Of a stretch of DNA of 60,621 bases, positions 382-60,621 are shown one piece after another (the stretch's first letter is position 1; each line of letters opens with the position of its first letter). The DNA lies in the NCBI GenBank assembly GCA_905178155.1, contig CAJINV010000026.1, forward strand, positions 1 through 60,621, in the 5' to 3' direction. This stretch comes from Amoebophrya sp. A120 (Eukaryota > Protista > Dinoflagellata). Under the pieces are notes generated by a model. That model was not told where the DNA came from, did not search any database, and saw nothing but the letters and a program-made list of their open reading frames with translations. Position numbers and translations under genes: made by a program.

Positions 382-2533
382 TCAGGGAAGGTGGTCATAG
401 TTCGCATATAATCTCGCATGATGCTCGTTATCGTGCTCCAGTGGTTGGGCGGTGGGCGCGGACTCGAATTTCCTCGGGCGCGAGTCGTTGTCACCAACCC
501 GCCCCCTGCTGGTGGTCAGCGGGATTCCGGAGTCCGAAGACGCAGGATCGCCCTCGGCGATAGAAGTAGGCGCAGGAGAGAAGACAGCGCCGGCAGTGGG
601 GGAAGGCGCCTCGGAAGGTGGAGAAGCAGGATCGAGGCGGGGACCCGGCGCTGATGTGTCGTCGTTTTTTTCCCGGAGGATTTTTGCTTGGTGCAACCTG
701 CGAACGGACTCGACTCCGCCCTGATCAACAAACGCTCTGAGCGCGTCCGTGACCGCTCGGCGCGGAACAGACCGGTCCGTGTAGTCACGGCCCGGTCTGA
801 TCTTGTAGACCCGTTTTTTCTCCTTTCCCTTGACTTTTGCAGCTTCGTTGTGCTCCTCCACTACCGGCGATCGCGACGAAGATTGCTCAGCGTCGGTGGA
901 GGTATGTGTGGTCTTCTGCCTATCCGCTGCGAATCTACTGCCTGTTGCGCCCTGGGGTTCTTCGGTCTTGCCAGTCGTAAGGGATGATGTGTTTTTGTTC
1001 CGGAGGATTTTCCTCGCGTCTTCGGTTCGGTCAACCGCCTCCTCGCCCTTGGTGTTGGCGCCTTTGCGGGATGCACATCGTGAGGAAAAATCCCGCCTCC
1101 CCATACTCAAAATGGAATCTTTGTGACACTTGTTTGCGGCCACAGATCATCAGCGTTGGCTTGTGGATAGGGGGAATGGCAGCTGCCACGACGTGGCGCA
1201 TTCCACCGCCAATCTTTCAACATGCGATTTCAACTGCTGTAATCCTGTATACCTATGCCGAATTGCTAGCCTTCTGCATGCCCAACCAGGCTAAGTATGT
1301 GTGTACAGATGTCCTCCAGCAACAGATATGGGGCGGAGGTATTTTGCACTGCGGTAATGTAGACGTCCGCACCTTCTCGGCCACGGCAGCTGCGGCTTCT
1401 TCTTCCGGTAGCTGCGGCTTCTTCTTCGCCCATGGTAGCTGCGGTAATTTTTCGGACGCGAAAACAACCTCCTTCTCTGTGGGGGTTGTGGCCGCGTCCG
1501 CGGCTGCAGAAATCGTGCCTCCTGTCTGTCCCGATGTTGCCACACCTGAAGCGAGATTATGTATAAGGAGAATGAGAGATGCAACACAAAGGAAATATAA
1601 AGAAATCTGCTTTACATGAAATGAGACTTGTACCCGAGAGTAGTAGCAATACGCTCGACCTATTACTTAATAGCCACCCATCCAAATTCAAGAAGGTACG
1701 GCAAGATCAAGATGCGCATGACAAAACCGAAGAGTAGCTACGTACCTTCAGAGCACTCTCCACCTCCGGTGATCGGCGCAGTGCAGCCGGATTCTTCATC
1801 TACGCCGGCGAAAAGCGCTAGACTGCCGTTACCGGCAGAAAAGACCCACCGGTACACAATCCCAAGCGATACCCCGAGGTACAGACCCACGGTGATGACA
1901 AAAAGCGCCGACCAGGTCAAGGAGTTCCACTTCGGTTTTGGGTCTTTGCATTTCACGCCACAGCTTTTGTGCATTGCAAATGTGTCTGGGTCTGGAAGAG
2001 TGCTGCAACTGGTGACGCTGCCTTTGGAATGTGAGAATATACTTGAAATCTGTATTGCATGAATAGCAAAAGCGGTCCAATTTTAGCTCTAATGCGGAAG
2101 AAAGTCATCGCAAAATCTGTACTATTACGGCATACATCAGAGACATTTTTGGCTATGCAAAATGTGCATGACAAAGATGGCACCCTTCCAGACCCAGACA
2201 TATTAGCAGTGGATAGCTTTTCTTGTAGAGCAATTTCGGAATCCGGAAAAACAGGTTGGTGCTCTGCAGTTCCTCCTCGTTCGCCTGTTGCTCCAGTTTT
2301 TCCTTGCGTTTCCGTTCCCTCTCGTACCACTTCTTCCACTTATCTTTCCCGCGCTTCCACTGCGGATTTTTCCTGCCGTTTGGGAAAAACTTCGGCGGAT
2401 TTGGGGGTTCCGGATCATCCACTGCTTCGTTACTTTTGTTCACTGCTCCCGGTACCGCTTTTTTCTCGGAGAAGCGGAAGGGCTCGTCGAGGTAGCAACA
2501 AAACCATCCGAACTCCTTGGCGAAGACGTGCAA
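382..2533 (-). CDS. Hypothetical membrane protein, multi-exon, 5' end unresolved
   Basis: Exons join in frame after removing introners 1968-2215 (LYKKS|CGVK) and 1076-1356 (VRTST|SRKG) and a GT-AG intron 1546-1745. One hydrophobic TM segment (ALFVITVGLYLGVSLGIVY). Confidence 0.7.
1076..1356. mobile_element. TIR introner, family F (degenerate)
   Basis: CATCGTGAGGAAAAATCCCGCCTCCCCATA...TATGGGGCGGAGGTATTTTGCACTGCGGTA; DR ATGCA/ATGTA; frame restored. Confidence 0.75.
1546..1745 (-). other. Canonical GT-AG intron
   Basis: GAAG|GTACGT...TTCAG|GT, phase 1, joins two ORFs in frame. Confidence 0.7.
1968..2215. mobile_element. TIR introner, family A
   Basis: TIR core TGCAAATGTGTCTGGGTCTGGAAG...CTTCCAGACCCAGACA; perfect DR GCTTT. 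Confidence 0.9.
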
Positions 2534-2802
2534 GTAGTGGGCGTAGCCGACCAGGTGCTTACGATTATGGCAGCGGAACGGAGAGTCAACGCGAGTTTTT
2601 TGTGTTGCGCCTCGCGAAGTGAAAGGGAGTTTGTTTCTACTAGAAGACGAGGCGCATTCATGATCATGAAATTTTCATCTCGTATAGATTTTATTGCTCC
2701 GTACATTTGCACCAGACAACTGGCTGGTAAATCAATAGCACTTGAGTAGCAGCCTGAAAGATCTAGCTACAAATGCACGGCACACGATCAAGACGAGCTA
2801 TG

Positions 2803-4986
2803 CTAACTAGAAAGAACTGAGAGACTAACAACACAAAAAAAAGCGGCCCGACTCGAAGATTGTGCAGCATAGCCCTCCTCATCGTCTTCGACCTGGTTTT
2901 CCGCCTCGTTTTGCTGCTCGTGGTTGGCTTGCTATCAAATGCAAATATGTTTGTGTCTGGAAGGATGCAAGGTTTGTCATGCTTGTCTGGCACGACTGAA
3001 GAGTTTGCGACGCGTGCCCAAGAAGAGATCCTTTTACTTGTCATGCAGAATCAGAAACACAGTTTGTCATGCGGAAAGCGCAATACTAGGGGTAGGGACC
3101 GCAGATGCTTCTCATCCTTGGGTGTGCATTACAGAACATACAAATATTCACAACCCAGCAATACAAGTATCCAGACCCAGACATATTTGCAGTTCATACT
3201 TCCTCGTCGTTGTCGATCTCGTCCACGTCCTCGTCTATCCTATGTAAAAACATCCCCGCACCAGAGTCAAGATGGGTAATCTGCTAGACAAATCAACCAG
3301 CTTTGGTTGTTTTGCATGACAAATTTGGACCCCGTAGTGTAATCCTTTTTAGCTAGCTCCAGCAGCATCACAATATCTTCATGCTGATTTTAGCATCACA
3401 AATTCCAAAACGGGATTAGAAAATGGCTCTCAAGGGGCTCCGCATGAAAAACTTTTTTGGCATGCAGATTTGCATGACAAATCTGGGGTGGGGACGTTTT
3501 TTACTCAGGATATCGTCCTCCTCGTCTTCTTCCTCGTCGTCGCTAGCGTTGTCATCCTCGTCCCCGTGTTATGCGTTGCAAATGGGTCCGGGTCTGGAAG
3601 GATGGAACGAAGTTGTCATGCGAATTGTGGAGGGCACAAAAAGAAAAATTTGTGTTGCGTGAGCACCAATAGTTGCCAGTTTCTTGCGAAGCAAAGATCC
3701 AACTTCTCATGCGGTCATAGGCATTGGACATGCGCAAGACCTGTATTGCTTTTGTATTTGTCTGCATTCCAGGTCTTCAAATATGTGGAATGGATGTGGT
3801 GCAGAAGATACATGACAAATAACATAGTCGCATATTTCCAGAAGACAGACATATTTGCAGTTGATACCTCCTCTTCTTCGGCGTTGTCATCCTCCTCCAC
3901 AATGTCGAACTCATCAGCGTATGGAATGCAAATATGTCTGGGTCTGGAAGCTTCGGAGACTTGTCATGCACGTTCTGCATGAGCCGTTGCTGTGATGTTT
4001 GTGATGCATGCGCATGCCCTAGCATCACAGTTTTTTTCAGGGCTTCTTTATGCCTATTCCGCATGACGCATGTTGCCCTTTCCGCGGTGCAAATATTAAG
4101 TACACTCCTTTCACTGCTCACGCAAAAATGCAGATTTCAATCTTTTTGGAATCGAAATGCAGCATCACAAGTTGCCTTCTTCCAGAACCAGACATATTTG
4201 CACCCAATACAGCGTCGCCATTTAGTTGTAGGTTGTCGTTCCCGGCCGCGTGGTGCATCTTGTATTTCATCGCCTTCATCGACGGCTATCATGCGAAAAT
4301 TGCGCGTTTTGCTTTGCTCATAAAGGTAAAAATGCCACCGGTCGTAAGGGGAGAACATGCAAAGCAGTTCTCGCGCAAAATGCAACTATTGCAAACTCGA
4401 TGTATTGCAGATGAAGTCAAGTTATGAACTGGCGTAAGCAAGCCCTTTCTTAATACTATTGCCGTCCCCCCTCTGGTATTTTTTTTTCTTTTTTACCTTT
4501 ATCACCAAGCCTTCCACGTTTCAAGAGCTGCAAGATCAGAATAATAGTAAACCAAAATAGTTGCCGCGGGTCCTGTTGTCATGCTGATTCGAATCACTTG
4601 TAGCTCCTTCATATAGTGGTGGAGTGACAAATTCGGAAAAGCATTTTTTGCGCAGTCTTCATCATGGATAGCATGGCCACCACTTTCTTCCCCTTGCTTT
4701 TGGCGCTGCCACTTACACCAATCGCCTTCATCAGCACCTTGGAGCCCACAACTACTAGTTTTTTCATCGCTACTTTCACTGCTGCAACCGGGCCCGCCGC
4801 CGCGTTCTTCTTATTTGCCGATGCTTTTCCTGTAGACGAGACTGCCGTGGCCTTTTTCATGGCTAGGAGAGAGGACGCTGGGGCAGATGCTGAGGAGGAC
4901 TTTTTCATTGCAGTTGAGGCCGAAATTCTTTTTGCGACAGCCCCGTTGCCACCCCGGCTTTGCGACCCGTTCTTTTTTGGCGCCAT
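2803..4986 (-). CDS. Hypothetical protein with basic K/A/M-rich N-terminus and D/E-rich C-terminus; 5 introners
   Basis: MAPKK...AMKK...MKAMKYKMHH...DADEFDIVEEDD...EDDEEG reads in one frame after removing five elements plus 5 nt each. It may splice on into the 382-2533 gene. Confidence 0.7.
2933..3198. mobile_element. TIR introner, family A
   Basis: TATCAAATGCAAATATG...CATATTTGCAGTTCATA; DR CTTGC/CTTCC. Confidence 0.9.
3236..3512. mobile_element. TIR introner, family B
   Basis: TATCCTATGTAAAAACATCCCC...GGGGACGTTTTTTACTCAGGATA; perfect DR TCGTC. Confidence 0.9.
3570..3866. mobile_element. TIR introner, family A
   Basis: Family A TIRs; DR decayed (CGTGT/CCTCC) but 5-nt removal restores the acidic frame. 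Confidence 0.85.
3920..4209. mobile_element. TIR introner, family A
   Basis: Family A TIRs; perfect DR CAGCG. Confidence 0.9.
4287..4670. mobile_element. Degenerate TIR introner
   Basis: TATC...GATA ends with weak inverted similarity; removal joins VVAM|PMKAMK in frame. Confidence 0.55.
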
Positions 4987-7827: not shown

Positions 7828-8603
7828 TTCCAGCGGGGTCCGTTCAAAGACCTTGCGGCCAACAAAACTCAGCGTCTCATTTACCTGAGAATTATGTCGG
7901 TCTCAACATGGTTCAGTTTATTCAAACACAACGCAAAAAGTCTCGTGAGAAGATGAAAGCGCTTTGTACTTGTTGCGGCGTTGCATAAATATTCCTATCC
8001 GCCTCCTGTACTTACTCGTTGACGCAGAAAAGTGAAGCATCGAACCAAGTTGCGAATTTAGATACTTATTTTCTATACCCCGGCGAGAGTGGTGTTCGTC
8101 GCCTTGTGCCAGGTCTCATGCGTTGAAAAGCGTTCCTCCATCACAGTTGCATATGCAATAGAAATTCGCCTGAGCGTCCTGGATTAGCGATGCGCGTGCT
8201 GTACTCAAACTCATCACGCGAACAATAATATAACGCATGAATTCCATTAACCAGTGCCAGAATGTTCTTTTGTAATGCTGGAACCAATGTTCCTTCCTTC
8301 AGCGAATTTGTATGGGACTAATATCATGACGTCCTTACAAATTGAATTTTGAATACGAGCAATGGCTAGCTGTGATGTGCAAGCCGATTTTCTTTTTTTT
8401 GATATTGAATTTGTCAGGACGTCGTTGTAATAGTAAACATCAAGATCAACTGAAGCATGCTTATAAAAATGATCCGAAAAAAGTTTGTCATGTTGACACA
8501 CCGGACGCGAGAAGGGTAAGTTCCCGGCTCGGGCACGCGAGGATCAACATGACAACCATGTGCATCTTGATCTTTCCAGGCTCAGACAACTCTCTAGTTG
8601 ATA

Positions 8604-10132
8604 CCCAGTTCTTTTCCATCACGGAGGAGAGTGCGGGCGTATCAAATGCAAATACTTATGCCTGGGTCGGAAACACTGCATCTTGTCACACTAGGGCGGC
8701 GGCTGGATGATCGTACGGCTACAGAAATCTGCGTTGCGTGACCGCCAAAACTTACCCACATCCTACGCAGAGAGCGAATTCCCGTACGAATTTTTTGGCA
8801 TGAAGGATTTCCCATGCAATCTGTGATGCATCTTTGCGCATTCGATTTCCAGACCACCTGCCTGGGGCTGGACGCTGGTCCAGGAAATGCATGAGAGGTG
8901 GAAGGCGCACTCTTCCAGGCCCAGACATATTTGCACGCGATAGAGCATCTGCGTTGTTAACTCGGAGTGGAGTGTGTGTGCCTCGGTCGTACCGCGATGG
9001 TAACCCGAATTATATGCGAACCATACGACCTATCCACCGTAAGCAGGCCAGCCTGCGATCCGGAAGTGATGCAATGAAATTTGTCCAGCTAAATTTGTAA
9101 TGGTCGGGTGATATCGCAGACAAAAATGTGATACGCAGGCAGTGAATTCGCTGAAACAGACAGGTACTCGAAAACCATCATCAACATCAGCAAACTCATC
9201 TGCGGCGCAACTTCTTGCCCAACAAAATTACGAGCTGAGGACCATGCACATAGAGAGTCTCGCAGCCACTGCAAATAGGCTGCCGAAATTACCTCATTGC
9301 ATTTCCATCCAAGCCCAAACTGACGTGTTTCCAGTGAATACGAGCAGGATCCCAATCTTAAAATCTTCGAGTACTATTGTTATTGGTGCAGCATCGAAAA
9401 TGGGGCACTGACTTTCCGGCTGTATCTGTCATGCTAGATCCACAAGACAATGCATCCATTCACATATAAATATTCCGAGTCTGTGCCTCAGGCTCATCTG
9501 TTCAAATTAACGTCGCACGCATGGTCGTGTCCCGCAGCCGGGGAAACAGGAACAGAAGAAAAGCGAATAGGATTCTCGCAACCAACATGCATCATGGTTG
9601 GTCCTCTGGCCAATTTCCTCGAGATTCTTTTCCAATCATAATTAGTGCTAGTCCAAAGAACACCAACACTCCTGCCAGTGCGAGTATCCAACAGTGCTGC
9701 TGTTATGAGAGTGCAGCACCCCACTCACCCTTAGTCTTATTTGTATATGCAAATACCTAGCCAAATTCACACTGAGTATCTATCCGTTGCTTTGCTCTGC
9801 CACAGTTCGCATGACAAGTCACGAAAAGACCCTGAGCGGTGCTTTTTTAAGTCTACGCAAGAGATTTCCATGCACGGGTCCACGATAAGTAAACCACCCC
9901 CGCGCTTCTATTCCAGCTCAACACGTTTCCGCTCAAATAAAGGGCGGGAAAGTGTTCTTGCGCACTCTCATATCGACCGGGTTTCGCGCCTGAGCTCCTC
10001 CTTGGCCGTCTTATAGGCTGTCTGCGCAGCCAGGCTTACGCGTCTGGTCGCGTTTTCGCGGACCGCATCGACTGCTGCCTCGAGCTCCTTGCGCTTTTCC
10101 GAGCGGCTAGTCGAAGAAGTCGCAAGAGCCAT
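8604..10132 (-). CDS. Small hypothetical membrane protein, 3' end unresolved
   Basis: MALATSS...RETRS|KHCWILALAGVLVFFGLALI|VLEDFKIGILL|VWFAYNSGY...QML|ALSSVMEKNW, assembled by removing four elements plus 5 nt each. Confidence 0.6.
8640..8942. mobile_element. TIR introner, family A
   Basis: TATCAAATGCAAATA...CCCAGACATATTTGCACGCGATA; DR GGGCG/GAGCA. Confidence 0.8.
9031..9340. mobile_element. Degenerate TIR introner (family A-like)
   Basis: TATCCAC...GTGAATA; DR CGACC/CGAGC; frame restored. Confidence 0.6.
9381..9640. mobile_element. Highly degenerate introner
   Basis: TATTGG...CAATCATA; DR ATTGT/ATTAG; frame restored. Confidence 0.45.
9704..9972. mobile_element. TIR introner, family E
   Basis: TATGAGAGTGCA...CGCACTCTCATA; DR not recognisable; 5-nt rule restores the frame. 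Confidence 0.7.
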
Positions 10133-10835: not shown

Positions 10836-12508
10836 TCATCGTGGAAGATCCTGTTCACGACGGATTTGCAGTTGGTGGTCTGCCAGGGGATGCGAGCGAA
10901 CTCTGCTGCGGCTCTACCTCCTGTTCGAGATATGCAATGCAAATGTGTCTGGGTCTGGAAGAGCGCAAACTTGTGATGCGGGTTTACTTATCCTGGGACT
11001 CACAAAAACATGTGCTGCTGTAGTAAGGAACACAAGACGCACGACGTCCCGATGCGGAACTACACTCTTGTTTCCCCACTAGCGCCAGTAGGGATGGGAA
11101 TAAAGTCCCAGCGTGAAGACCCTGCCCCCACGCGCGGCCCTTGTCATTTGTCATGCAGATTATAGCGAAGGAAACAAATGCAAATGCATCCGCAGATTTT
11201 GTCATGCTCCGTGTGCTTTCTAGAGGACTTTTTCGCAGGTAGAAAAATTGCATGACAGGCGTCTGCTGTAGTCTTCCAGACCAAGACATATTTGCACTCG
11301 ATACGGGTTGGTCTTGGATAATTTTCAAGGCTTGCTGCTCCTCGGTCATCGCCTCGTCCGTCAGCGCCAGCTTTCATCCCGTGAAAAAACAATGCCCCCA
11401 CCTCAGAGGCAGAGCAAATTTGGGATGCAATATTTGCTAGACAACAAAGCATAGTCAACAAGTTTTGCTTTTGCGCATGACAAGTTTGGGCTCGCTAATA
11501 TGTAGTAACGTTTAGCTAGCGCAGCGGCTTTACACAAGTACTTTCTCGTGCTGATTCGGGCATGGCAAGTTTCAAAGCGAAAACCGAACTAGGAAATCGT
11601 ACTCATGGTGCTGCGCATGACGAGAAAGTAAGACTTAGACTTCAAGTTCAAGCATGCAGATCAGCATGACAAGTCTCGGGTGGGGGCGTTTTGTTTATTC
11701 AGGATAGCGTTTTCACAAGCAGTATCGCGTGGTCCAGGCCCATATCCTGTGCAAAAGCATCGCGCTCGTAGTAAATTGCAGTCATGCGTTACAATTCTTT
11801 TTCTTACGGTAAATCCGCATTGTACAAATTTTATTTTGCATGCTGAGAAAATTTGTCATGCAACATTATACGAGTGCTATACATTTGCAACTCATAGTCC
11901 TTTCCAAGCGTATCGATCTCGTTCTCCTTCTCGGTTCCCAATGTGGTAAGCTTGCTCTCGAGAGCTGCGATCTCCTTGTCTTTCTCTTTCTTCGTCGCTT
12001 GATGCTGCTGCTCGAGCTTGTTCTTAGCGTCAGTTTGGAGACTAGTTTGCTCTTCTGCAGCGGCCACTCTCTTCGCGAGATCTGCGATCTCCTTGTCTTT
12101 CTCTTTCTTCGTCGCTTGATGCTGCTGCTCGAGCTTGTTCTTAGCGTCAGTTTGGAGACTAGTTTGCTCTTCTGCAGCGGCCACTCTCTTCGCGAGATCT
12201 GCGATCTCCTGGTCTTTCTCTTCGTTCACCGCTTGAAGCTGCTGCTCGAGCTCGACGATCTTCTTTTGTGCCTCTTTCTTTTCGAGCTCGGCGACCTTCG
12301 TGAGTACCTCCTCTTCCTCTGCGGCCTTTCGACGATCTTCAGCGGCGGCGACCTTCTGCACGTGGATTTTCGTGATTAACTCTACATTCTCCGTTTTCGC
12401 CTTGGCCAACCGGTCCTCCAGGTCTTTGGCCGTCTTCTCCATGAGTGCCGTCGTATTTCCGCTATTCCGTGCCCGAAAAGCTAAGCACCAGACTCGCAGG
12501 ACTTGCAA
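10836..12508 (-). CDS. Coiled-coil hypothetical protein (3' part; further exons probable up to ~13820)
   Basis: E/K/Q/A-rich frame continues LGKD|LDHAILLVKT|LALTDEAM...DQP|EQEVE across three introners to TGA at 10836. Confidence 0.7.
10931..11303. mobile_element. TIR introner, family A
   Basis: Family A TIRs; DR CGAGA/CGGGT. Confidence 0.88.
11375..11706. mobile_element. TIR introner, family B
   Basis: CATCCCGTGAAAAAAC...GGGGGCGTTTTGTTTATTCAGGATA; DR GCTTT/GCGTT. Confidence 0.82.
11743..11896. mobile_element. TIR introner, family C
   Basis: TATCCTGTGCAAAAGCATCG...TTTGCAACTCATA; DR GCCCA/GTCCT. Confidence 0.82.
11965..12210. repeat. 117-bp coding tandem duplication (39 aa)
   Basis: EIADLAKRVAAAEEQTSLQTDAKNKLEQQHQATKKEKDK occurs twice, essentially identical. 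Confidence 0.9.
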
Positions 12509-15500
12509 CTATTGTCATCTATGCATAATTGTATAAAGAAGGTTTTGCTCGTCGGTAGTTAGACCAAGGTAAAAACATTTGTCACAATCACAAATGTCCC
12601 TACCTCTAATTCCCTACACAAGTTCATCACCCTGACTCATGTTGAGCGAAATAAAATGCAAGTCTGTACAAGCAATTTTTCCTACAACCAGTGCAATAGT
12701 TTTGCAGTGCATATTGATGGACCGCAGCTATCCGCTGCTCGAATGTTGATTTCTGCTCCTGCAGTTCTTCATTTTGCTTTTCGATTGTAGCTTGGAGCTC
12801 GTCCTGCGAAGCGTTTGCACGCCAATATCAAACAGCGCAAACCCAATGTTTCTCGAGCCTGAAAAGAGAAAGAAACCACTGTCGCTTGAGTACTCAACAT
12901 GCGTAAAAGAAAAAAAGGTCATGAGTGCCTAACCAAAAGTTCCAAAGCATCTTGCTCGCGGTTCTTGATCTTTTCAGAACCCGGCGAAACATAATTTGCA
13001 AAAAGCATATGTCCAGACGCCGCAGGAGATCTTTGATAATGGCGTCTTGCTGCTTCTTTGCGGTTGTGGAATCAAAGCGGGCTGCACCATCCCGTGGAAG
13101 TACGTCGGGGCGTGCAGAAATCCATCTTTCTACTGCAGGACCGCCCCAAGATCAAGTTTTCCCTTTAGTTTTTCTTAGGCGGCAAAGTCCACCAACACGA
13201 GAGCATGCATATCATGCAACTACAGTTTCAGACTATCAAGGTTTTTTTTTCGCTGAAGGTAGAAGAGGATGTCATGGTGCGTAGCGCGCGACTGTACTCT
13301 CGAGGATGTGAAGCTATGCTCGTGTCGGATAGTTTCTGTTTGTCTGTGCACCTCGGCCTTCTGGCTGGCAACCTCCGCAATCAGTTCGTCACGAGTACGG
13401 ACACATTGCTGGGGATCTGGTCGAGGTCGACCGTGGCCAAGAACGGAAGCCGCACGATATGCATCTCTCAGAGTACCGCTATTACACAGTCTCAAACTCG
13501 TCAAACAATTTCACCAGCATTATACCATCACTGTGTGAGTAGACAAGCCCTTCTGCGATTCGAGTGAAGAGCGTGAAAAGAGTCGTGAGCTTCATTGGGG
13601 TTTCATTCATCATCCTGGCAGGCAAAAAAAGAATGTCACCCACCGCTGCGGTCACCTTGCCCGAGACTGTGTCAACTTCTAACTCTGAGGGACCGAAGCA
13701 TAGATTGCCCCTGGCGGTGGTACCATGTTCGTCCTCGTCCTCCGTCGGCGCTGTACTCTTCGACCCCTCTTCTTGCAGGATCATCGTGATCAGCGCTGCC
13801 GCTGCACCACGCGGCGGCACGGAATAAACTAACAGACAACTCGCTTAGTGCCACTGCAACTTCTGTTGCACCCACAACAAAAATCCCATTCTGTTCTGTT
13901 GTCTATCTTAAATCTCTACAGCGGTTGCTAGTGTAGTTCTAGGACAAAAAAGACCAGCACAGCCGGACCGATGCTTCTTTTCTGCGGTCTCTGCGCTAAG
14001 AAAAAAATGACAACCAATAAGCACATCTTCCGACGACTACAACAGGACATCCAAAAGAAAACAAGAACAACGAAAGAAAGGACTACTAAAGGAAAACGAG
14101 ACCGCACAGCCACGAGGAAGTGGCTAGAAAAAGCCAAAAAACCAGAAGAAGAAAAATTACGTGGTGGAGGAAGGGGATCCATCATTGTGTTCTTGATCAA
14201 GTAAGTACACTGCACTGATCGAAGGCCGACACAATAGATGGAACACCACACAGTGAATACTTTTGCGCTTAGCTCGGGCACTTGTTACGGGCCGAGGTTT
14301 CACGAGCCCTCTTCTTCTTTTCAGGAGATATTTTAACAAACACGGGTATTCATCCAGGAGTTTCAAATTTGTCGCTGATATTACTGGTAATGGTTTTTGA
14401 TGTACAGATTCAATCAGAAGCCATGAATGCATCATCTACATCAGGAGGCACCTCAAGTTAGTGTTCCAACACTAATTCATACCAAATGTTGTTTTTCGTT
14501 CGGACACCTGTAGTTTGCCATCAGTACGCTTCATGTCAGACGATAGAAGATTTGAAACTGATAGTAAAAATCGGCATCAATAAGATCCAGCAAGCAGTGG
14601 CACCCTCTTTCTCAAAAAAAGAAGTCGAGTCCCGCCCCTTGCCTGTGCATTTTCCCCAGCAGCCCCGTCGCCACACCATTCACTTGGAATGTCTGGTGCC
14701 AGGTCTGCGAGTTGTGGTCGTCACACGAAAAATGAGTAGTAGAAGAGCATTTGCATTAACATGGGATATAATTCAAAAAACTCTTTTCCGTGTCCATCCT
14801 GTTGCAGTGGCGCTCAAGCCTGAAGAAAATTTGGATTCCGTCGTGCTCGTCAAATTATTTCGGTGTCGCAATAATAAATTGTATCGCTGGGGAGGAAGTT
14901 GGTGATGATATAAACAAATGAATGGTTTTACGTTGTAAGCCACTAGAAATACGTTGTAATTGTTGGTTTGTCTGTAAATTTGCTTTCACATTGCTTGTAG
15001 TTTAGTGCTCACCACGCTATCCTATTCAATATCAATTCTTGTAAAATTTCGTTAAGGTAATCCGCTGAGGCTGACTTCCACGGACGGAACTCTTGTTTCA
15101 CACTTTTCGGGTGAGCACTTTCCCTTCAACTATCTTCGACGTGCAGATAAGTTTGATAAAGATGAAGAAAATCTAACAAATCGTTTGTGTTTCTGTTTCT
15201 GAGAGTGAGATCTAGTAGCTTCTCCCCTATGAATTATCTTCTGCTGTAGGGTTCATCGACACGTTCAGCAGAGTATCGATTTAAGCAGGACTGATGCCCG
15301 TGTAGTGACCGGCCGCCGGTCGCCAGTATTGTCTTTCTTGTGTGTGAGTACTGGTAAATCACAAAAACTTATTTGTTGATACGGTAGTACAAATTGCGTT
15401 GTCTTCGGGTTGCAGATTGTGCTCTTAGCTGCATCGCCCGTTTGTGCAGAATTTGCTGGTCGGTTGGTTCTGCGGCCGCATCGACAGAAATTATTGGTCG

Positions 15501-26469: not shown

Positions 26470-26476
26470 TTCTTAG

Positions 26477-44629: not shown

Positions 44630-44742
44630 CAAGGAGTTGCTTGTCAAGGAGTTGCTTGTCAAGGAGTTGCTTGCCAAGGAGTTGCTTGTCAAGGAGTTGC
44701 TTGTCAAGGAGTTGCTTGTCAAGGAGTTGCTTGTCAAGGAGT
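44630..44742. repeat. 15-bp tandem repeat (CAAGGAGTTGCTTGT), about 7.5 copies
   Basis: Read directly from the sequence. Confidence 0.97.
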
Positions 44743-45452: not shown

Positions 45453-45553
45453 AATGCAAAACTTGAAGAGTCTGCGCATTTGATACAGCGAGGACCTCTT
45501 CTAGCAGCTCATACTTTTCTTTTCCAGACACTCCGCGTTCAGCATGGTACTAC
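45453..45553 (-). repeat. Diverged duplicate of the 5' region of the 42646-44157 gene
   Basis: Matches ~44131-44234 (GAGTCTGCGCATTTGATACA...TTTCCAGACACTC...CATGGTACTAC). Confidence 0.8.
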
Positions 45554-46629: not shown

Positions 46630-47185
46630 TTAAGCAGCCGCCGCCAACTTTTCGATGAATTCCTTCAATTTCGGCTCCGACGCGCCCTCAAACTTGTCAA
46701 ACTTCTGTCCGTCCTTGAAAAAGATGAAGGTTGGCATGCAGTTGATGTCGCACGCTTCCGCGGTGTCGCCGTTCTCATCGACGTCGACCTGGATATTTTT
46801 TGTTCAGGGATTTTTAGGCTTGCGTATAATGTGTTGTACGCATGACAAAATGAAAATCGTGGCATAGATATAGGCGGTTTTCGCATGACAAACTCACTAC
46901 AGCGTCTTCATCTGCATCATGCACATAGAACAGTTATGCCTACCGTGCATGACAGAATCGACTACACGCGCTCGTGCGTTTTGTTTCCAGCAACACAAAC
47001 TCAATTCCAGGTTGTATCAATACCTTGCAGAACGCCACGTTGGTGTATTGTTCCGCCATTTTGACGAAGACCGGGCCGATCATCTGGCACGGCCCGCACC
47101 AAGTTGCCGTGAAGTCCACAGCGACGAGTTTGTTGCCGGCGAGGAAGGAGTCGAACTCCTCTTTAGTCGCGAGCTGCTTCACCAT
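46630..47185 (-). CDS. TRX: Thioredoxin (106 aa, two exons)
   Basis: VDFTATWCGPC active site; FCK|VDVDE joined across GT-AG intron 46789-47023; MPTFIFFKDG motif. Confidence 0.96.
46789..47023 (-). other. GT-AG intron with introner relics
   Basis: CAAG|GTATTG...ATATCCAG|G; near-DR CCTGG/CCTTG; several GCATGACA motifs inside. Confidence 0.85.
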
Positions 47186-47837: not shown

Positions 47838-49926
47838 CTGCATGGTAGGGAGAACAAACCCAGCCAACCTATAGGCTCTCAGTGGCCTATCTATAGGCAA
47901 AACTTATTCAGCGTAGCACGCGGCGAAGAAAAATTGTTTTCCAACCAAGATTTTTCCTGGGGCCCTCGCAACTTTTTTAAATTCATCTTTGCCCGACCTG
48001 CATGCCGATGCCTTCGATACGAAGTTACCCTATCTATAGGCCCTCGGAGGCCTATAGGTGAACGGCTTTACCATCGTGATTGCGTTTTGTGTGAATTTGT
48101 TTCAGTTTTTTCTTTTTAAATCAAGCTTTGCGAAAAATTTCGAATCCTGCATGGCAAGGAGAACAAACCCAGCCAGCCTATAGGCTCTCAGAGGCCTATC
48201 TATAGGCAAAATTTATTCAGCGTAGCACGCGGCGAAGAAAAATTGTCTTGCGCGCAAGTTTTTTGCTGAGGCCCTCGCAACTTTTTCAATTTCATCTTTG
48301 CCCGACCTGCATGCTGATGCCCTCGATACGAAGTTGCCCTATCTATAGGCCTTCGGAGGCCTATAGGTGAACGGCGGTGAACGGCTATAACACCGTGATT
48401 GCGTTTTGCATGAACTCATTACAGTTTTTTCTTTTCAAGTCAAGCTTTGACAAAAATATCGAATCCTGCATGGCATGGAGAACAAACCCAGTCAACCTAT
48501 AGGGTCTCAGAGGCCTATCTATAGGCAAAATTTATTCAGCGTAGCACGCGGCGAAGAAAAATTGCCTTCCATGCAAGTTTTTTGCGGAGGCCGTCGCAGC
48601 TTTTTCAATTTTATCTTTGCACGACCTGCATGCTGATGCCTTCGATACGAGGTTGCCCTATCTATAGGCCCTCGGAGGCCTATAGGTGAACGGCTATACC
48701 ACCGTGGTTGCGTTTTGCGTGAACTCATTGCAGTTTTATTTTCCTTTCCAACTCAAGCTTTGAGAAACATAACGAATCCTGCATGGCATGGAGAAGAAAC
48801 CCAGCCAACCTATAGGCTCTCAGAGGCCTATCTATAGGCAAAATCCATTCAGCGTAGCACGCGGCGAAGAAAAATCGCACTCCTTGCAACTTTTTTGCTG
48901 AGGCCCTCGCGACTTTTTCAATTTCTTCTTTGCCCGACCTGCATGCTGATGCCTTCGATACGAAGTTGCCCTATCTATAGACCCTCGGAGGCCTATAGGT
49001 GAACGGCTATACCGCCGTGATTGCGTTTTGCATGAACTCACATCAGTTTTTTCTTTCCAACTCAAGCTTTGAGAAAAATATCGAATCCTGCATGGAATGG
49101 AGAAGAAACCCAGCCAACCTATAGGCTCTCAGAGGCCTGTCTATAGGCAAAATTTATTCAGCATAGCACGCGGTGAAGAAAAATTGCCTTCCGCGCAAGT
49201 TTTTTGCTGAGGCCCTCGCAACTTTTTCAATTTCTTCTTTGCCCGACCTGCATGCTGATGCCTTCGATACGAAGTTGCCCTATCTATAGGCCCTCGGAGG
49301 CCTATAGGTGAACGGCTATACCGCCGCGATTGCGTTTTGCATGAACTCACTTCAGTTTTTTCTTTCCAAATCAAGCTTTGACCGAATCCTGCATGGCATG
49401 GAGAAGAAACCCAGCCAACCTATAATAGGCTTTCAGAGGCCTATCTGTAGGCAAAATTTATTCAGCGTAGCACGCGGCGAAGACAAATTGCCTTCCGCGC
49501 AAGTTTTTTGCTGAGGCCCTCGCAACTTTTTCAATTTCTGCTTTGCCCGACCTGCATGCTGATGCCTTCGATACGAAGTTGCCCTATCTATAGGCCCTCG
49601 GAGGCCTATAGGTGAACGGCAATACTATCGCGATCGCGTTTTGCGTGAATTCATTTAAGTTTTTGCTTTCAAAGTCAAGCTTTGATAAAACATATCGGAT
49701 TCCGCATGGTATGGAGAACAAACCCACCCAACCTGTAGACTCTCAGAGGCCTATCTATAGGCAAAATTTATTCAGCATAACATGCGGCGACGAAAAATTC
49801 TCTTGCGCGCGAGTTTTTTTCTGAGGCCCTCACATTTTTTTTAACTTTATCTGCGCACGACCCGCATGCTGATGCCTTCGATATTAAGTTGCCCTATCTA
49901 CAGGCTCTCGAACGCCTATAGGTGAA
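47838..49926. repeat. ~310-bp tandem satellite, 7 copies
   Basis: Unit starts near 47838, 48147, 48466, 48779, 49088, 49389 and 49703; rich in CCTATAGG/CCTATCTATAGG. Confidence 0.95.
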
Positions 49927-50233
49927 AGGCTGCACCCCCGTGGGAGCGCTAGCGTTTGCTTTAATTGCATTGCAGAATTCCAGTGGCGAGCTGAACGCAG
50001 TAAACAAGTTCAGTGCCGACAAGTGAATATGCATTCAAAATAAATACGCTCTGGCAATACAAAAAGTAATCATAGATAGCACCTTAGTGTGTGCGTTGTT
50101 AAGCATTCGCAAGCAGTGCCAGTGCCAATGCTGTCATACATTTTTAAGCTACCTGAAGTGATGTGAGTCCGAGTATTCGTGTGAAATTGTTGTGCAGAGA
50201 TGTGTACATTTTTATCTTACGGCGTGCTCCGTA

Positions 50234-53430: not shown

Positions 53431-56400
53431 TCACAACCACGACGCCCAACCCACGTACATCTGCTGCAGGTTTCTCAGATCGCGTATGGATGTGTCAGAG
53501 TTGAAATCGACAAAGTTGAAATAATTTGCGATGCATAAAATGCAACCCGCAAAGCGCCTGTCTTGCAGAGTAGGCAAGGGAGGCATATTGCAAGCCTGTT
53601 GAGGGGTAGAAATAGAGCTGCTAAAGTAGCACGACAAAAGGCGTCTTCCTTACACAAACAGCATTACAAACTGGATTTAGGCACCGCCAAAACTTGTCAT
53701 GCGCCACTTGAAAACTGTGCTCCAACTGGCATCCATTTTATGCATGGCAAACTATTTCAACTCTGACGATTTCAAACCTGACGCTTCCATATCGCGGGCC
53801 GCTTGGATAATCGCGTCAACCTGTCGGGGAATTTCCAACGGCACCCCCTTGTCCCGGCCGGCCTCACCCGGACTGTTCTTGCTCTTGTCGTCCGGCTCGG
53901 GCTCGCGGGGCGGGAAAACCTAGGTGAGCGACGTAGGGAGCATGAGCAAGTTGCTGCAAATTCAGATCATTATCATACCGGCATACTTATCTATTGGGCT
54001 GACGTGCCGCGTCGTGGCTTTGAAAAGTTCACTGCTTGCGGCCGCAGTCAGAAACAGACGAAGCGGCCGGGAAGTTAGAAATCTTCGGGGAGGGGCTGAC
54101 CGTCCCCGGCGAGAAGCTGCAAGCCCATGGCGCAAAGCTGACCGCCCTCGGCGAGAGGATTCCAAACCGAAGGCGAGAAGTCGGAAACCAAGCGGGCGAG
54201 AAGTTGAAAGCACTTGGCGAGAAGTCGAAAGCACTTGGCGAGAAGTTGACCAACTCCGGCGAGAGGTCGAAAGCCCTCGGCGAAAAGCTGACCACCCCCG
54301 GCGAGAAGTCGAAGGCAATTGGCGAGAAGTCGGCAACCAAGCGGGCGAGAACGAAGTTGAAAGCACACGGCGAGAAGTCGCAAGCCCTTGGCGAGAAGTC
54401 GAAACCCCTTGGCGAGAAGTTGACCACCTCCGGCGAGAAGTCCAAAGCGCTCGGCGAGAAGTTGACCACCCTCGGCGAGGGGTCGAAAGCAATTGGCGAG
54501 AAGTCGGCAAGCAAGCGAGCGAGAAGGCGAAAGCACTTGGCGAGAAGTCGAAAGCCCTTGGCGAGAAGTCGAAACCCCTCGGCGAGAAGTTGACCACCTC
54601 CGGCGAGAAATCGAAAGCCCTCGGCGAGAAGTTGACCACCCCCGCCCGGCGAGAAGTCGAAAGCCGTTGGCGAGAAGTCGGCAACCAAGCGGGCGAGAAT
54701 TTGAAAGGACTTGGCGAGAAGTCGAAAGCCCTTGGCGAGAAGTCGAAAGCCCTTGGCGAGAATGAAGTCGAAGGCCGTTGGCGAGAAGTCGGAAACCAAG
54801 CAAGCGAGAAGTTGCAAGCACTTGGCGAGAAGTCGGAAGCCCTTGGCGAGAAGTCGAAAGCCCTTGGCGAGATGAAGTGGACCACCTCCGGCGAGAAGTC
54901 GAAAGCCCTCGGCGAGAAGGCAGAAATCGAGCGGGCAAGAAGTTGACAAACCCTACTATAGAAACCATACGGCCCCAACAATCTCAGCCCATACAGTCTA
55001 GCTGTGCAGTTTCTTCCGCGAGCGCGCCGGCTCTTCTAAGTTGCGCGCAACTACTTCTTCTCTGGAGCAAAGCACGCGACGAGCAACTATGCCTCACACC
55101 AAGGGAGGTGGTGCCCGAGCTGGTTGGGAATTGCCCTCCGCTGGTTGCGGTTGCCCTGGCTGGGCAATTGCCCTCCGCGGACGCAGCTTGTCTTCATGGA
55201 AAGCTTTTGTAGATAGCCCCGGAGCCCAATTCCCGCAGCCACTTGCGGACATTCTCTGTGGCAGAAGCGATAACGAAGACGGACAATTACTCTCAGGCCA
55301 CGAATCGCGAGTATCCCTCTGAGACGTTTTTTGGCGCGCCGAGGCGCTTTTCGGCGCGCCGCTGCCCAAAAGGCGCCAAGTCTGGCGCTTTTTGGCGCGC
55401 GGCGCGCCGAAAAGCGCCGCAGAGGGAATCTTGCGACCCGCGGCCCTGAGAAAAGGTCGGAGAGAATTGCGGCTTCACTGCAGTTTCTGTCGCAGAGAAT
55501 TCCGAAGGCGGCCCCAGAGAATGGGGCCCGGGGCTTCTCCGAAAGCCATCGCGCAGAAACAAGGGTGGGCAATTCAGAGAGCGAGGGCAAGCGCGACTGC
55601 GCACCGCTGCGCGCGGTTCGGAAAGTCTTAGAACGCTTTCCCGGCCCTTTGCTCTTCTGTTTTTTCGCTAATTGCTTCTGGGAGTGCCCGAACTATACTG
55701 CCACAGGCTGGGCATTTTCCAGAGTGGAAAGGGTTGAGATTGCCACTCGCGGCACGGTCTTTTTCCAATCCAGGAAGGTTTTTTTTGGCTCGAGAAATTT
55801 CCACAGAGGACCGTGAGCGACGTGCGAAACAAAAATGAGCGACTTTGGAGCTCTGCACCCCCCGACAATACGTGCCTTCTTACGCGACGAGCAACTATGC
55901 CTCACACCAAGGGACGAGGTGTTGCCCAAGCGCCCCACTAAAGTACCTCCTTCAAAAAATCGAAAAACAATGCAAGAACCCTGTACAACTTATAGATACC
56001 TTCGCCATGACAGAATCCTTTGCGCTGTTGTCTCTTTTCGTCTCCTTGTCCGTCCGCCAGGTATCGTACGTGACGTGGCCGTTCATATCAACTGTAAAAG
56101 TGTCTGGGTCTGGAAGAATCCAACTTGTCATGCTGATTTTGGATTCTAAAAAAATCTGTATTGCATGAGCAGCAAAGAGAGTCCAAGTCTTGCTACACGG
56201 AAAGAGCATTTTTGATGCGGTATAGGCATCAGGAAGCCCTCACGAAATTTGTGATGCTAGGGCATGCATCACAGACATCAGGAGTGATGCAAAATGTGCA
56301 TGACAAACCCGGCAATCTTCCAGACCCAGACGTTTTTACATTTGATAGTTCATCTTGTTGATCAACTCCTGCACGGTCCGCTCGGGCGCGAAGCCCTTGT

Positions 56401-59400
56401 ATAACAGTGCACAGCTCCCCCGTGGTCACCGCCTCGTTTGTCATGCAAAATCCCAAATCCATCTTTTCTATTAGTTACTCTTTGGCACTTCTTGCATGAC
56501 AGGTTCCGGAAGCCGAAACAGCACTAGAATTATCGGTCGCGAAGTTGTCATGCAAAAGCTGCACCCATGCCAGCACTTGTGCTGCTGCTCATGCGTTTTA
56601 AATAAAAAATGCGGGCCGAGGGGGGGGGGGTGTGCACCCATCTCATACCTTGTTTTTCCAATCCACAAAAGGGTCCGCGACGAAAGAGCCCAAAACCGCG
56701 GACAGCGTATCACGATTATTCTGGATCACCTTCATGAAGACCTCGCAGCTGTGCCGGTAAAGTCCCTCCACGCCCGTTACGCCGAGCGGCGTGACGCAGT
56801 TCGCGGTCAACCGGAAGGGCACAACCTCCGGCTTCGCGAGGTGCAATCCCCGCCCGAATAAGCAGTCGAAGTCGACATGCACGATAGAGCCGGAGACTTT
56901 GTCGATCAGAATGTTTTCCCCGTGCCGATCTCCCAGTCCAAGGATGTACCCGAGCATAGACCACACCGCCAGAGATTTCGCATAGGTATTCCTCCGCGCC
57001 AGCCAGTCGCTGGGGTCCGCGCTTGTCCGCTGGTACCAGAGGTGCAACACCGGCGGGTGTCGCGGGACCAGTTTTGTCAGGTAATCCATGTTATGGATTG
57101 CAAAAGTGTCTGGGTCTAGAAGATTCTGAGATCATTTGTCATGCAGTTTCTTCAAGCTCCCCCACGTCTGGAATGCAGGGCCTAGCATCACAGGTTCTGG
57201 AGCTCCTTGGTGATGCGTACTCTGCATGAGAAATGCCCTCTCAGCATGACCAGAAGTGGGCACCTTTTGCACGTTCTGCACCACAGATCTTTTTAGGATC
57301 CGAACCACGCATCACAAGTTCGGATCCTTCCAGACAACCAGGGATATTTGCATTTGATACATGTAGGTCTCCGCCAGTTTGTGCTCCGCGGTCCACTCCA
57401 TCGCGGCGGGGTATCTCTTGTGCAGGCGTTCAAGATTCTGTTTTATGCAATGCAAGTACTTATGTCTGGTTCTGGAAACTTGTAATGCTGGGTTGGGAAT
57501 AGTGAAAGCTCTGTAATGCTGCACAGGCAAACATGAGAAATATCTGCGCTAATTGGTGTTGCACTTTCCGCATGACAAACTGCATTATTGCATGACAAGT
57601 AAAAGGATCTCTTCCTGGACAAGCATCACAAACTCTTCAGTCATGGCAGACAAGCATGACAAACCTTCTATTCATCCAGACCCAGACCACATGTTTGCAG
57701 TGCATATGTTCTTGCTCGATGCAATTTCGCATGGGGACGGTGTTCTGCACCCACTCTAGCAAGCCGTGGTTCTCGGTTAGGGTGTATACATTGCAAATGT
57801 GTCTGGGTTTGGAAAACTGCTAGTTTGTCATGCGCGTCCCGCATGACTCTTAACTCTGTGATGCATGCGCCGGAAAAGAGCCTTTTTCCTGTCATGCAGA
57901 AGCGCAGTTTGCCATGCGGAACTCGCAACACATAGCAGCTCCAAAACTTGTAGTGCTTGGCTGCGCATTGCAGTGTGCCCATCACTGGCAGATTTGCATA
58001 CACAAATTTCCAGGCCCAGATGACATGTTTGCAAGTGATAGGGTGGTGACCGTGTAGTGGCGGATCTCGAGTATCCTGAGTGAAAACGTCCCCATACCAG
58101 AGTTGTCATGCAATTCTGCATGCTAAAAAAGTCTCTCATGCGGAGCCCTACGAGAAGCCTTTTCTGTTAGTGTTTTGGAATTTGTTACGCTAGAATCAGC
58201 ATGCTAGGCTAGGTCTGTGTTGCTGCTGAACTAGCGAATAACCGGATTACACTACGAGGACAAACTTATCATGCAAAACGACCAAAGCTGGTTGACTTGT
58301 CTAGCAGATTTCCCATCTTAACTCTGGTGTGGGGACGTTTTTAATCAGGATATCGAGTTTCCTTTGCATAGACTCGCCGTTGCGCCGTAAAAGCTTGTTG
58401 AGCAAGTTGCACAATTCCATGACCCTTTTGTCTTTCTTCAAGTCGCCCCGCTGCTCCATTTTCCCCAGAAAGGGGTACAGATTCCCATCCGACCCCTTGA
58501 TAGTGACCTTCTTTGGCTTTACCTTGCTGTTCATGACATTCACTCGGTCGATGCACCGGTCAATAAACACTTCCGAGCAGGAGCTCGTGCCGGAATTGCT
58601 CGGGTTCTGCGTGTTCATCTGACCCATTTGCTCGTTGATCTGCAGCATCACCTGCGATTGATCGTACCCCGCCTGAATGCTGGACTCCGCAGCGGAGCTT
58701 TGCCCCCCGACCGTTTGTCCCGACACGACATGGGAATCGGGAAGCACGTATGTATTGCAAATATCCCTGGATGTCTGGAAGTAGAGCGCAAACTTCTGAG
58801 GCGCACTTCAAATGACGCAAATTTCTGTCATGCATGGACAGCAACAGTCTCCCACTTCTTATCACCGACGGCAGAAATTTATCATGCGGATTAGGCATTA
58901 AGAAGCCTCCGCGAAACCTCTGATGCTAGGGCTGGCATGCCATACCTGCTTAGTTAGGAAAAAACAGCATGACAAACATCAGCACTCATCCAGACCCAGA
59001 CATGTAATTCGCATTTGATAGCACCGCGAAGCACTTCGTTGCGGGCACTAACACCGCGCACCGGTACAAGGGAACCTGTCGCTGCTCATTGCCTTCCAAG
59101 ATCTTCACGACACTCGGGTTACCGAGAAATTTCAGGTACGTAGTGTGGTGCTGGTGCAGAGACAGGCATCAAAAGGAAAAAACTCCCTCCCCATATCGAA
59201 ACGAAATTTCTGATGCTGGAATTGCGTACACAAATCAGCCTTGTCTTGCCGTGGATGACTGCAGGCCCATATCAAGCCTGTGCGAAGAGGTTTTGGCCTA
59301 GGCGCTCAGCATGAAAAAGGTCTATGCTTTAGGCCCATCAGCATCACAAACCGCCGGAATAATGCGGAGGGCCTAATTGGGTTTGCTTTTTTGCAAGGCA

Positions 59401-60388
59401 GACGCGGTTTGTGACCACAAATCACCATCGCAAATTTCCAAAAATATACCTTTTCAATATGGGGAGGGAGGATTTTCGCTTGTGATAAAAGTATGGTTCG
59501 GTTTTCGGGTACGTCCGTGATAAGTTTCAAAAAGGCTTGCTGCCAGTAGCAATGCGTCGCACGGTATGCATTGCAAATATGTCTGGGTCTGGAGCGCTGC
59601 AACTTGTCATGCTAATTCTGGATAGTGCAAAAATCTGTGTTGCGTGATTACCAAAAGCTGTCCACGTTTGACCAAGTTGAAAGGCTGTTTGTCATGCAGG
59701 CGAGGCATGATAGAGGTCGCGCAGAATCTGTCATGCCAGAGCACGTATGACAGACTTCATGCGTCATGGAAAAACTGCATTGCATAGCGTTGCATCCTTC
59801 CAGACCCGACATATTTGCAGTTGATACACGGTAGAAATGCCGGGCTTCTCTCGTCTGGAGGTAGTACGCGAGCACGCTGTTGGACCGCACTTGATTATAC
59901 TGTCCGGCGGGAATCGCGCCCGAGGGTGGATATGGGGTGCTCAGACGTTACATTCTCAACTGTTGCATGAATTTGTCATGCAAAAGCACCATCATCATCC
60001 TCACGATCAAGCTGCTCCGCATGACAAATTTTCGAAGGGCTAAGCCGCGCCTAAATCTGCGCCAAACTTATAATATATATAATGCAAAAGGCGCAATCTT
60101 CCTCCTTTCACTTTTGCGTTACTAATTCATGTAACAGTTGAGAATGTAACATTTGAGAACTCCATAGTGGAAAGCCTCTATTTTTGCTTTCCTTATTGTT
60201 CCCCGCAGCTCCTCCACTTGTGTTACCTCCGTGATGGTGATGCTGATTATTTTGATTGTTTTCACCAACTCCCGGTGGGGAGCTCCCGACCAAGCCCGTG
60301 CCCTGCAGGCTGCTGTAGGTGATTTTCCCGAGGCAAAGCTGCTCCATGCTTTTCAGCTCCTCGGCACTGATGCCTTGGTAATCCCTTA
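53431..60388 (-). CDS. ATR: ATR-like PIKK serine/threonine kinase, 3' part (kinase and FATC); continues beyond the window
   Basis: SKVKPKKVTIKGSDG, DLKKDKRVME, GLLEWV, YILGLGDRHGENIL, HVDFDCLF, PEVVPFRLT, GVEG and FATC QQMYVGWASWL* all in frame after removing 11 complete introners and one 2.08-kb GT-AG intron. Confidence 0.92.
53485..53791. mobile_element. TIR introner, family I
   Basis: Perfect DR TCGCG; splits the FATC domain (QAAR|DLRN). Confidence 0.93.
54100..54945. repeat. Degenerate ~21-bp-based tandem array (GGCGAGAAGTCGAAAGCCCTT)
   Basis: GGCGAGAAG recurs every ~21-24 bp with higher-order variants. Confidence 0.9.
55343..55418. other. GC-rich hairpin (~36-bp arms, 4-nt loop)
   Basis: GGCGCTTTTCGGCGCGCCGC...GCGGCGCGCCGAAAAGCGCC. 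Confidence 0.8.
56086..56347. mobile_element. TIR introner, family A (young subfamily)
   Basis: Perfect DR GTTCA; near-identical to 60394-end. Confidence 0.95.
56400..56647. mobile_element. TIR introner, family E
   Basis: Family E TIRs; perfect DR CCTTG. Confidence 0.9.
57092..57359. mobile_element. TIR introner, family A
   Basis: Family A TIRs; perfect DR CATGT. Confidence 0.92.
57444..57706. mobile_element. TIR introner, family A
   Basis: Family A TIRs; DR TGTTT/TGTTC. Confidence 0.9.
57785..58040. mobile_element. TIR introner, family A
   Basis: Family A TIRs; perfect DR GGGTG. Confidence 0.92.
58072..58352. mobile_element. TIR introner, family B
   Basis: Perfect DR TCGAG; reverse-orientation relative of 3236-3512. 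Confidence 0.93.
58749..59020. mobile_element. TIR introner, family A
   Basis: Family A TIRs; DR GCACG/GCACC. Confidence 0.9.
59167..59487. mobile_element. TIR introner, family F
   Basis: CATCAAAAGGAAAAAACTCCCTCCCCATAT...ATATGGGGAGGGAGGATTTTCGCTTGTGATA; DR ACAGG/AAAGT. Confidence 0.88.
59565..59826. mobile_element. TIR introner, family A
   Basis: Family A TIRs; perfect DR CACGG. Confidence 0.93.
59931..60166. mobile_element. TIR introner, family H
   Basis: TATGGGGTGCTCAGACGTTACATTCTCAACTGTT...AACAGTTGAGAATGTAACATTTGAGAACTCCATA; perfect DR GTGGA. Confidence 0.93.
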
Positions 60389-60393
60389 GGAAC

Positions 60394-60621
60394 TATCAAA
60401 TGCAAAAATGTCTGGGTCTGGAAGAATCCAACTTGTCATGCTGTTTTGGATTCTAAAAAAATCTGTATTGCATGAGCAGCAAAGAGAGTCCAAGTTTTGC
60501 TATACGGAAAGAGCATTTGTCATGGGGTATAGGCATCAGGAAGCCCTCACAAAATCTGTGATGCTAGGGCATGCATCACAGACATCAGGAGTCATGCAAA
60601 ATGTGCATGACAAACCTGGCA
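60394..60621. mobile_element. TIR introner, family A (young subfamily), truncated by window end
   Basis: Left TIR and body near-identical to 56086-56347. Confidence 0.9.

Follow-up and report, generated by a model that had tools for sequence, protein, structure and literature searches.

The stretch studied here, positions 1 to 60,621 of contig CAJINV010000026.1 of the dinoflagellate Amoebophrya sp. A120 (hereafter the window), carries in its coding sequence insertions resembling miniature inverted-repeat transposable elements (MITEs), bounded by terminal inverted repeats (TIRs) and 5-bp target duplications. They correspond to the introner elements described by Farhat et al. 2021 (PMC7789003), rediscovered in the same genome, and the class, as the original prediction also stated, is already published. 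We found that the 17 elements that could be checked are missing from presumed transcript contigs precisely, each together with 5 nt, and that removal is likely to use one fixed cut, which we infer to lie 1 nt ahead of the 5′ TAT and 4 nt past the 3′ ATA, N|UAU(C/G)…AUA-NNNN|. By what means some 60% of A120 introns are removed in the absence of GT-AG and of U1 is a question that goes beyond the published class. If the fixed register holds, this question becomes concretely testable (lariat site, key base, contact with small nuclear RNA, snRNA), and a simple rule for re-annotation of the A120 genome is gained.

Elements and the genes they interrupt

TAT…ATA segments flanked by perfect 5-bp direct repeats occur 39 times in the window, as compared with 0–6 times (mean 3.3) across 10 first-order Markov simulations. 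Relaxed end searches gave 55 automatic rows, of which 43 were retained and 12 discarded as chance matches or for bad bounds; with 14 hand additions, the curated catalogue comprises 57 complete TAT…ATA elements and one truncated by the window end at 60394, in agreement with the previous estimate of about 60. The complete elements are 109–373 bp long (median 262) and total 14,465 bp, or 24% of the window. Their direct repeats match at 5/5 positions in 31, 4/5 in 11, 3/5 in 10, 2/5 in three and 1/5 in two, so that at least four positions agree in 42/57. The TIR ends fall into seven groups with at least two members, plus 13 singletons, close to the 10 or so families expected, and position counts agree with the published form: an 8–20-nt inverted repeat with a TAT start, some seven variable bases and then three or more A. 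Related copies form 10 clusters at 72–89% identity. A motif, GCATNAC or its complement, has 152 matches in the 14.5 kb of element DNA and 27 in the 46 kb outside, and folding gave z < −2 in 45 of the 57 elements (12 shuffles each).

Among the perfect repeats, the first position is C in 14/31 and the fifth is G in 14/31, which amounts to a symmetric target preference; together with short length, TIRs and target duplication, this is what characterizes MITEs. No transposase family was matched in a Pfam scan of 10 window proteins, and none is reported for A120 in the accessible text of PMC7789003. The features of published A120 introners are present as well, namely border repeats, removal mostly without GT-AG, and repeated family members. 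Degenerate element-like stretches, with the internal motif or a single TIR end, were noticed at 4280–4670, 8300–8603, 9110–9430, 12500–12713 and 21142–21379, and some of them may be old elements since become ordinary introns. A search for partners of the unpaired ends near 4.3, 8.6, 9.1–9.3 and 12.7 kb gave no convincing element.

Every rebuilt host frame lies on the minus strand, to which all genes, elements and introns listed in this text belong. The GT14 (core-2/I-branching) gene, matching PF02485 and with a coding sequence of about 36757–42535, is interrupted between 36935 and 42127 by 14 elements (36935–37143, 37207–37348, 37389–37537, 37804–38072, 38246–38354, 38919–39201, 39311–39537, 39601–39925, 40159–40308, 40353–40637, 40682–40943, 41032–41283, 41333–41543 and 41817–42127), which agrees with the at least 14 copies predicted; it also contains a canonical GT-AG intron of 290 nt with the donor GTATCT (38462–38751). 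Removal of each element with 5 nt yields a protein identical over 745/745 aa to P0121 (CAD7973952.1). The open frame across the 14 elements reaches 753 aa under this rule and at most 289 aa at offsets 0, 3, 4 and 6.

The same was observed for a gene of unknown function at 30496–35930, which bears 11 elements (30496–30754, 30797–31110, 31706–31956, 32144–32430, 32516–32739, 33689–33966, 34248–34512, 34636–34780, 34881–35043, 35217–35424 and 35658–35930). Its rebuilt product is identical to P0122 over 1015/1015 aa; the open frame measures 1034 aa with element plus 5 nt and at most 604 aa at offsets 0, 3, 4 and 6. Pfam gave no match for P0122.

The third major host encodes the C-terminus of an ATR-like kinase (53485–60621). 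Twelve copies had been predicted there, and twelve were found: one in the FATC exon (53485–53791), ten in 56086–60166 (56086–56347, 56400–56647, 57092–57359, 57444–57706, 57785–58040, 58072–58352, 58749–59020, 59167–59487, 59565–59826 and 59931–60166), and the truncated one from 60394 to the window end. With 11 elements removed by the element-plus-5 rule the frame is open for 616 aa, as compared with 212–337 aa with +0, +3, +4 or +6, and the rebuilt FATC domain is 83% identical to that of P0003. The published model of this gene, P0001 (296 aa; 53434–60392), is truncated, runs into element sequence twice and is mis-spliced; the rule mends it to 616 aa with a FATC domain. A canonical intron of 2080 nt (53920–55999) is much longer than its neighbours and contains a tandem array of 21-bp units (54172–54919) and other repeats. 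The claim that intact proteins are rebuilt when each element is taken out with one copy of its direct repeat is thus borne out by two genes whose products equal published models and by the ATR C-terminus. An ATR exon, a GT14 exon and one at about 34 kb match A120 proteins in NCBI at 100% identity, among them CAD7973957.1 and CAD7973952.1.

Removal takes place at the RNA level

Evidence from transcript contigs covers the window from about 29.4 to 42.7 kb. It comes from a contig run, X4, presumed to be RNA on a program's guess; contigs of another run, X1, served for comparison of element presence, and only two reads of the raw RNA run X9 were placed. Junctions were derived from the coordinates of contig pieces, and three of the four removed lengths are sums over several elements. 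Two X4 contigs skip 515, 2713, 316 and 777 nt, which equals 3, 10, 1 and 3 elements with 5 nt each plus the single GT-AG intron of GT14, whose length exactly explains the 290 nt left over in this arithmetic. The first three lengths belong to record 12 and GT14, and the last, with its 15 extra nucleotides, to record 10 and the 1015-aa gene. Thus, all 17 checkable elements are absent as element plus 5 nt, and the presumed transcripts lack them as had been anticipated. Record 12 continues unbroken beyond the GT14 start into the stop region of the upstream gene (42128–44178), so the neighbours either overlap or were joined in the contig.

On the other hand, the X1 contigs (records 2 and 3) include elements 30797, 32144, 32516 and 33689 with zero differences, and X1 depth over the elements is even, at 23–35. 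Elements missing from X4 contigs and kept in X1 contigs indicate that removal occurs by RNA splicing and not by excision of DNA. Loss from somatic DNA, which defines internal eliminated sequences (IESs) and which the original prediction had put up for checking, was not seen at any of the four elements crossed. IES-like excision, or dead loci with transcripts arising from intact copies elsewhere, might still be imagined, as the RNA status of X4 is a guess, and as only 15 of 1091 joints are listed, none of them a splice joint, which leaves room for rare empty sites. However, a canonical GT-AG intron is likewise missing from record 12, whose listed exon pieces agree with the window letter for letter, the elements are present in X1 contigs at uniform depth, and P0121 forms a single-member cluster; we regard this explanation as very improbable.

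RNA splicing of the elements does not depend on their orientation. Nine of the 10 clusters contain copies in both orientations relative to the transcript, and all four members of two opposite-orientation pairs, 32516/39311 and 38919/40353, are removed in X4. A symmetric signal is therefore required, and this directs attention to the TIRs and their stem.

Position of the splice sites

The exact cut is hidden wherever the repeats are perfect. We define the register, k, as the count of upstream-repeat bases retained in the exon; perfect repeats conceal k and diverged ones expose it. When the boundary was slid through all six registers in 46 elements, no canonical pair appeared in 39. The assertion, made for the junctions then checked, that sliding does not give GT-AG holds for these and fails for two of the remainder, 20467 and 56400, which can be read as GT-AG; two more allow GC-AG and three AT-AC.

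Six junctions are informative. At 37207–37348, where the repeats are AATGT upstream and AGCCC downstream, only k = 4 or 5 retains Cys668, which is Cys in 112/112 homologues aligned there (118/149 aligned at all) and also in P0121 and 2GAK. A GT…AG reading with element plus 4 nt at this site was ruled out by the 92-nt count. This is probably the GT14 junction that had been left unresolved, and it now resolves as element plus 5 nt. At 32144–32430, k = 5 would give Glu, and the published model has Lys, hence k ≤ 4. For 33689–33966, the end of an X4 piece at 33684 gives k = 1–4, provided that ambiguous letters go to the right-hand piece, as happened at five other junctions; the pieces listed for this record do not include its upstream 78 nt. 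Comparison with the published model requires k ≥ 2 at 30797 and k ≥ 1 at 32516. Finally, k ≥ 1 is required at 57444 by a Glu that matches P0003, P0004 and P0036, in a column that is variable in distant homologues. Given one common register, k = 4 is the sole value that fits all six, and the intron would accordingly read N-TAT…ATA-NNNN.

One may ask whether a common register exists at all. The cut, though spliceosomal, could float within the 5-bp repeat and differ between introns, since an intact repeat tolerates every register; in the 31/57 elements with perfect repeats all six registers yield identical mRNA. The bounds on k are drawn from different introns, and the legend to Fig. 3 of PMC7789003 calls the sites variable. 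Nevertheless, all six informative junctions fit register 4 and none requires another, and positional conservation of a single T suits a fixed frame, so that a floating register appears to us unlikely.

The T in question is the first TIR base, which becomes intron position +2 in register 4. It departs from T in 1/57 5′ ends and 8/57 3′ ends (Fisher p = 0.03; paired 1 vs 9, p = 0.02), and no such 3′ excess was seen at TIR positions 4, 9, 11, 12 and 13. In the inferred register, T thus stands at +2 in 56/57 elements. The sole element whose 5′ TIR starts with C (31706–31956, removed in record 10) is preceded by G, which produces a GC donor (G-CAT). Register 4 donors in the 46 elements are GT in 16, GC in one and other NT in 29, and ordinary GT-AG introns result where the target ends in AGG, as at 56400 and in an intron of a thioredoxin gene (46789–47023). 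The latter is canonical and stands outside the 57, with Pfam Thioredoxin positions 5–55 and 56–103 on its two exons; it can be read as an old element, 46793–47022, with the repeats CAAGG/CCAGG and the geometry of register 4. Canonical donors in the window begin with GTAT in 4/5 cases, two of the five introns resting on frame continuity alone. All nine "predominant" non-canonical pairs of A120 in Table S4 of PMC7789003 also begin with N-T.

Several observations weigh against one fixed register. No junction bounds k from both sides, and the lower bound of 4 comes from one intron. The asymmetry at +2 does not reach significance in the subset of 46 elements (p = 0.06–0.11), and several positions were tested; moreover, a sense-strand A-to-G mutation bias could turn a 3′ ATA into ATG without selection. 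Register 4 gives G at +1 in 17/46, an AG end in 2/46, and 35 distinct end pairs. In the drawing of Farhat et al. 2021, the splice sites vary in position with respect to the hairpin (PMC7789003), and the N-T starts of Table S4 may reflect a preference of the aligner for GT/AG-like placement. The published A120 annotation is transcript-based (PMC7789003), and published models can err, as the mis-spliced P0001 illustrates. The G before TAT looks like a transposase target preference: we rejected selection for a GT donor as its principal cause, because the first repeat position carries C just as often (14 and 14 of 31). The idea that both repeat copies are constrained by coding was dropped too, as mismatches (8/77, 12/75 and 13/78 at codon positions 1–3) show no synonymous bias.

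Neither the fixed register, nor the asymmetry at +2, nor the orientation test was found in the literature searched; figures of PMC7789003 beyond its accessible part (Fig. 3, S19–S25) and subscription papers may show them.

Possible mechanism of removal

The most likely mechanism, which we favour with modest confidence, would be a relaxed major spliceosome lacking U1, in which U6 and U5 read N|UAU and the stem gives the 3′ position. In A120, U2, U4, U5 and U6 snRNAs were found, and U1, snRNP27 and the U12/minor snRNAs were not, according to PMC7789003. Such a U2/U5/U6 machinery might read UAU at +2 to +4 in the way it reads GUAU of normal A120 donors; this is the least certain step. The TIR hairpin would then join both intron ends and fix the 3′ cut without AG; the snRNA contacts and a branch point are likewise conjectural. 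As the same TIR stands on both ends, either orientation presents the same donor and stem, and any insertion is a removable intron. Loss of SNRNP27K has been linked to +4U donors (PMC10581693), with which the U at +4 in N|UAU fits, and tunicates demonstrate that the major spliceosome can relax to this extent (PMC13326754).

The elements satisfy the usual description of U2-type introns in part: in register 4 they lack the combination of a GT/GC donor and an AG acceptor, and, given that register, they possess U at +2 (56/57) and donors resembling the canonical GTAT (4/5). Some element ends read NTATCCT and presumably resemble the U12 donor. Assignment to the U12 type, the class of the RTATCCTT donor and minor snRNAs, was not supported, AT-AC being possible in only 3/46; minor snRNAs are reported absent from A120 (PMC7789003). 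Two further findings speak against the proposed mechanism. The candidate branch motif GCATNAC lies 26–51 nt from the 3′ end in 28/57 elements, and the mirrored motif occurs close to the 5′ end in 19/57, so that its placement is nearly symmetric; pairing of the terminal TAT exceeds 0.5 in only 36/57.

Alternatively, the RNA might be spliced precisely by a non-spliceosomal, structure-guided cut-and-join reaction that would cut the foot of the TIR stem in a staggered manner. Such a reaction has been proposed for the nonconventional introns of euglenids, whose TIR-paired ends have an uneven overhang and which are released as circles (PMC11282704). Independence of orientation, 35 different end pairs among 46 introns, strong hairpins and the failure to find U1 (PMC7789003) would all suit such a process. 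It does not account readily for the T kept at +2 with GC as the lone exception, for donors that match the canonical GTAT, or for the GT-AG introns that register 4 also makes at 56400 and in the thioredoxin gene, and most spliceosomal parts are present in A120 (PMC7789003); we consider it rather improbable. Taken together, the evidence tentatively favours a relaxed, U1-less, hairpin-guided major spliceosome over a wholly separate machinery. Of the original proposal that excision is precise and independent of the U2/U12 dinucleotides, the first part stands, on 17/17 elements in X4 and two rebuilt proteins. The second is not supported in that form, in view of T at +2 in 56/57 in the best-fitting register, the GC exception, the likeness of N-TAT to GTAT, and the two GT-AG cases.

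A bolder version may also be contemplated, tentatively and as a less probable one: splicing measured from the stem, with a staggered cut always placed 1 nt ahead of the TIR hairpin and 4 nt past it, U at +2 as the sole need, either orientation permitted, and possibly a machinery other than the ordinary spliceosome. If this were true, every symmetric MITE that has TAT ends and a 5-bp duplication would arrive as a finished intron, which would account for tens of thousands of gains.

Other hosts and features of the window

The remaining elements interrupt genes that we know less well. A gene of unknown function (16251–21066) has eight, 16251–16506 (bounds uncertain), 18636–18951, 19139–19367, 19501–19779, 19821–20193, 20225–20440, 20467–20719 and 20813–21066, and a 913-aa open frame after their removal; a coiled-coil-like gene has three (10931–11303, 11375–11706, 11743–11896) and a frame of 259 aa. 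Removal of 1076–1356 and 1968–2215 from one gene, which also has a canonical intron (1546–1745), gives 378 aa, as compared with 209 unspliced. Four elements (2933–3198, 3236–3512, 3570–3866 and 3920–4209) lie in an acidic stretch of another frame, continuous for 110 aa and weak on length alone. The element 43462–43618 unites two frames into 456 aa, and three others (8640–8942, 9704–9972 and 23371–23585) were recognized by TIR similarity and have no firm host frame.

Two long frames of 1005 and 330 aa (25483–29494) are free of introns and elements and apparently have duplicated segments in common, as judged by eye. Neither matched Pfam, and they are possibly a mobile or recently acquired gene. 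An apparent local duplication occupies 44146–45552, where two near-identical TIR right ends (44163 and 45485) with similar flanks enclose tandem arrays of 15-bp units and of 11-bp units, the latter in 65 copies. A 309-bp satellite (6.8 copies, 47838–49942) has a TAT-started TIR-like stretch in each copy, and might be derived from an element. The segment 50400–53110 is GC-rich and element-free, with a duplicated unit of about 1 kb and inverted GA/CT-rich arms.

Comparison with known systems

The closest relatives are the published A120 introners, with which the window elements share TAT inverted repeats, an A-run about 10 nt in, 3–5-nt border repeats, a length of about 240 nt, a hairpin and RNA support; two gene models rebuilt here, GT14 and the 1015-aa gene, equal published ones (PMC7789003). 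In that genome more than 60% of introns are non-canonical, with inverted repeats starting with TAT and direct repeats of 3–5 nt, 29,850 family members are described (PMC7789003), and tens of introners occur per gene (PMC12130899). The difference lies in the borders, which the accessible text of PMC7789003 leaves as unknown or variable, giving no splice signature, whereas a fixed register is proposed here.

Nonconventional introns of euglenids (PMC11282704) and noncanonical introns of hemistasiid diplonemids (PMC12621601) are alike in their TIR-paired ends, repeats resembling target site duplications (TSDs), lack of GT-AG and probable MITE origin. The euglenid motifs are, however, CAG/CTG (+4 to +6 and −8 to −6), as against TAT/ATA at +2 and −5 in A120, circles were shown for the euglenid introns (PMC11282704), and the lineage is unrelated. 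Fritillaria borealis also has transposon-derived introns with TIRs, TSDs and diverse ends, which a modified major spliceosome processes. There, U1 is kept, AG-AC/AG-AT ends are favoured and U2AF is duplicated (PMC13326754, PMC11282704), whereas in A120 U1 is reported missing (PMC7789003) and T at +2 alone is conserved. MITE-derived introners with co-opted GT/AG mostly carry or recruit canonical sites, in contrast to the 39/46 elements that offer none in any register; they resemble the A120 elements in the hallmarks of DNA transposons, in the net unchanged length of the mRNA and in tens of introns per gene (PMC9860276, PMC12130899).

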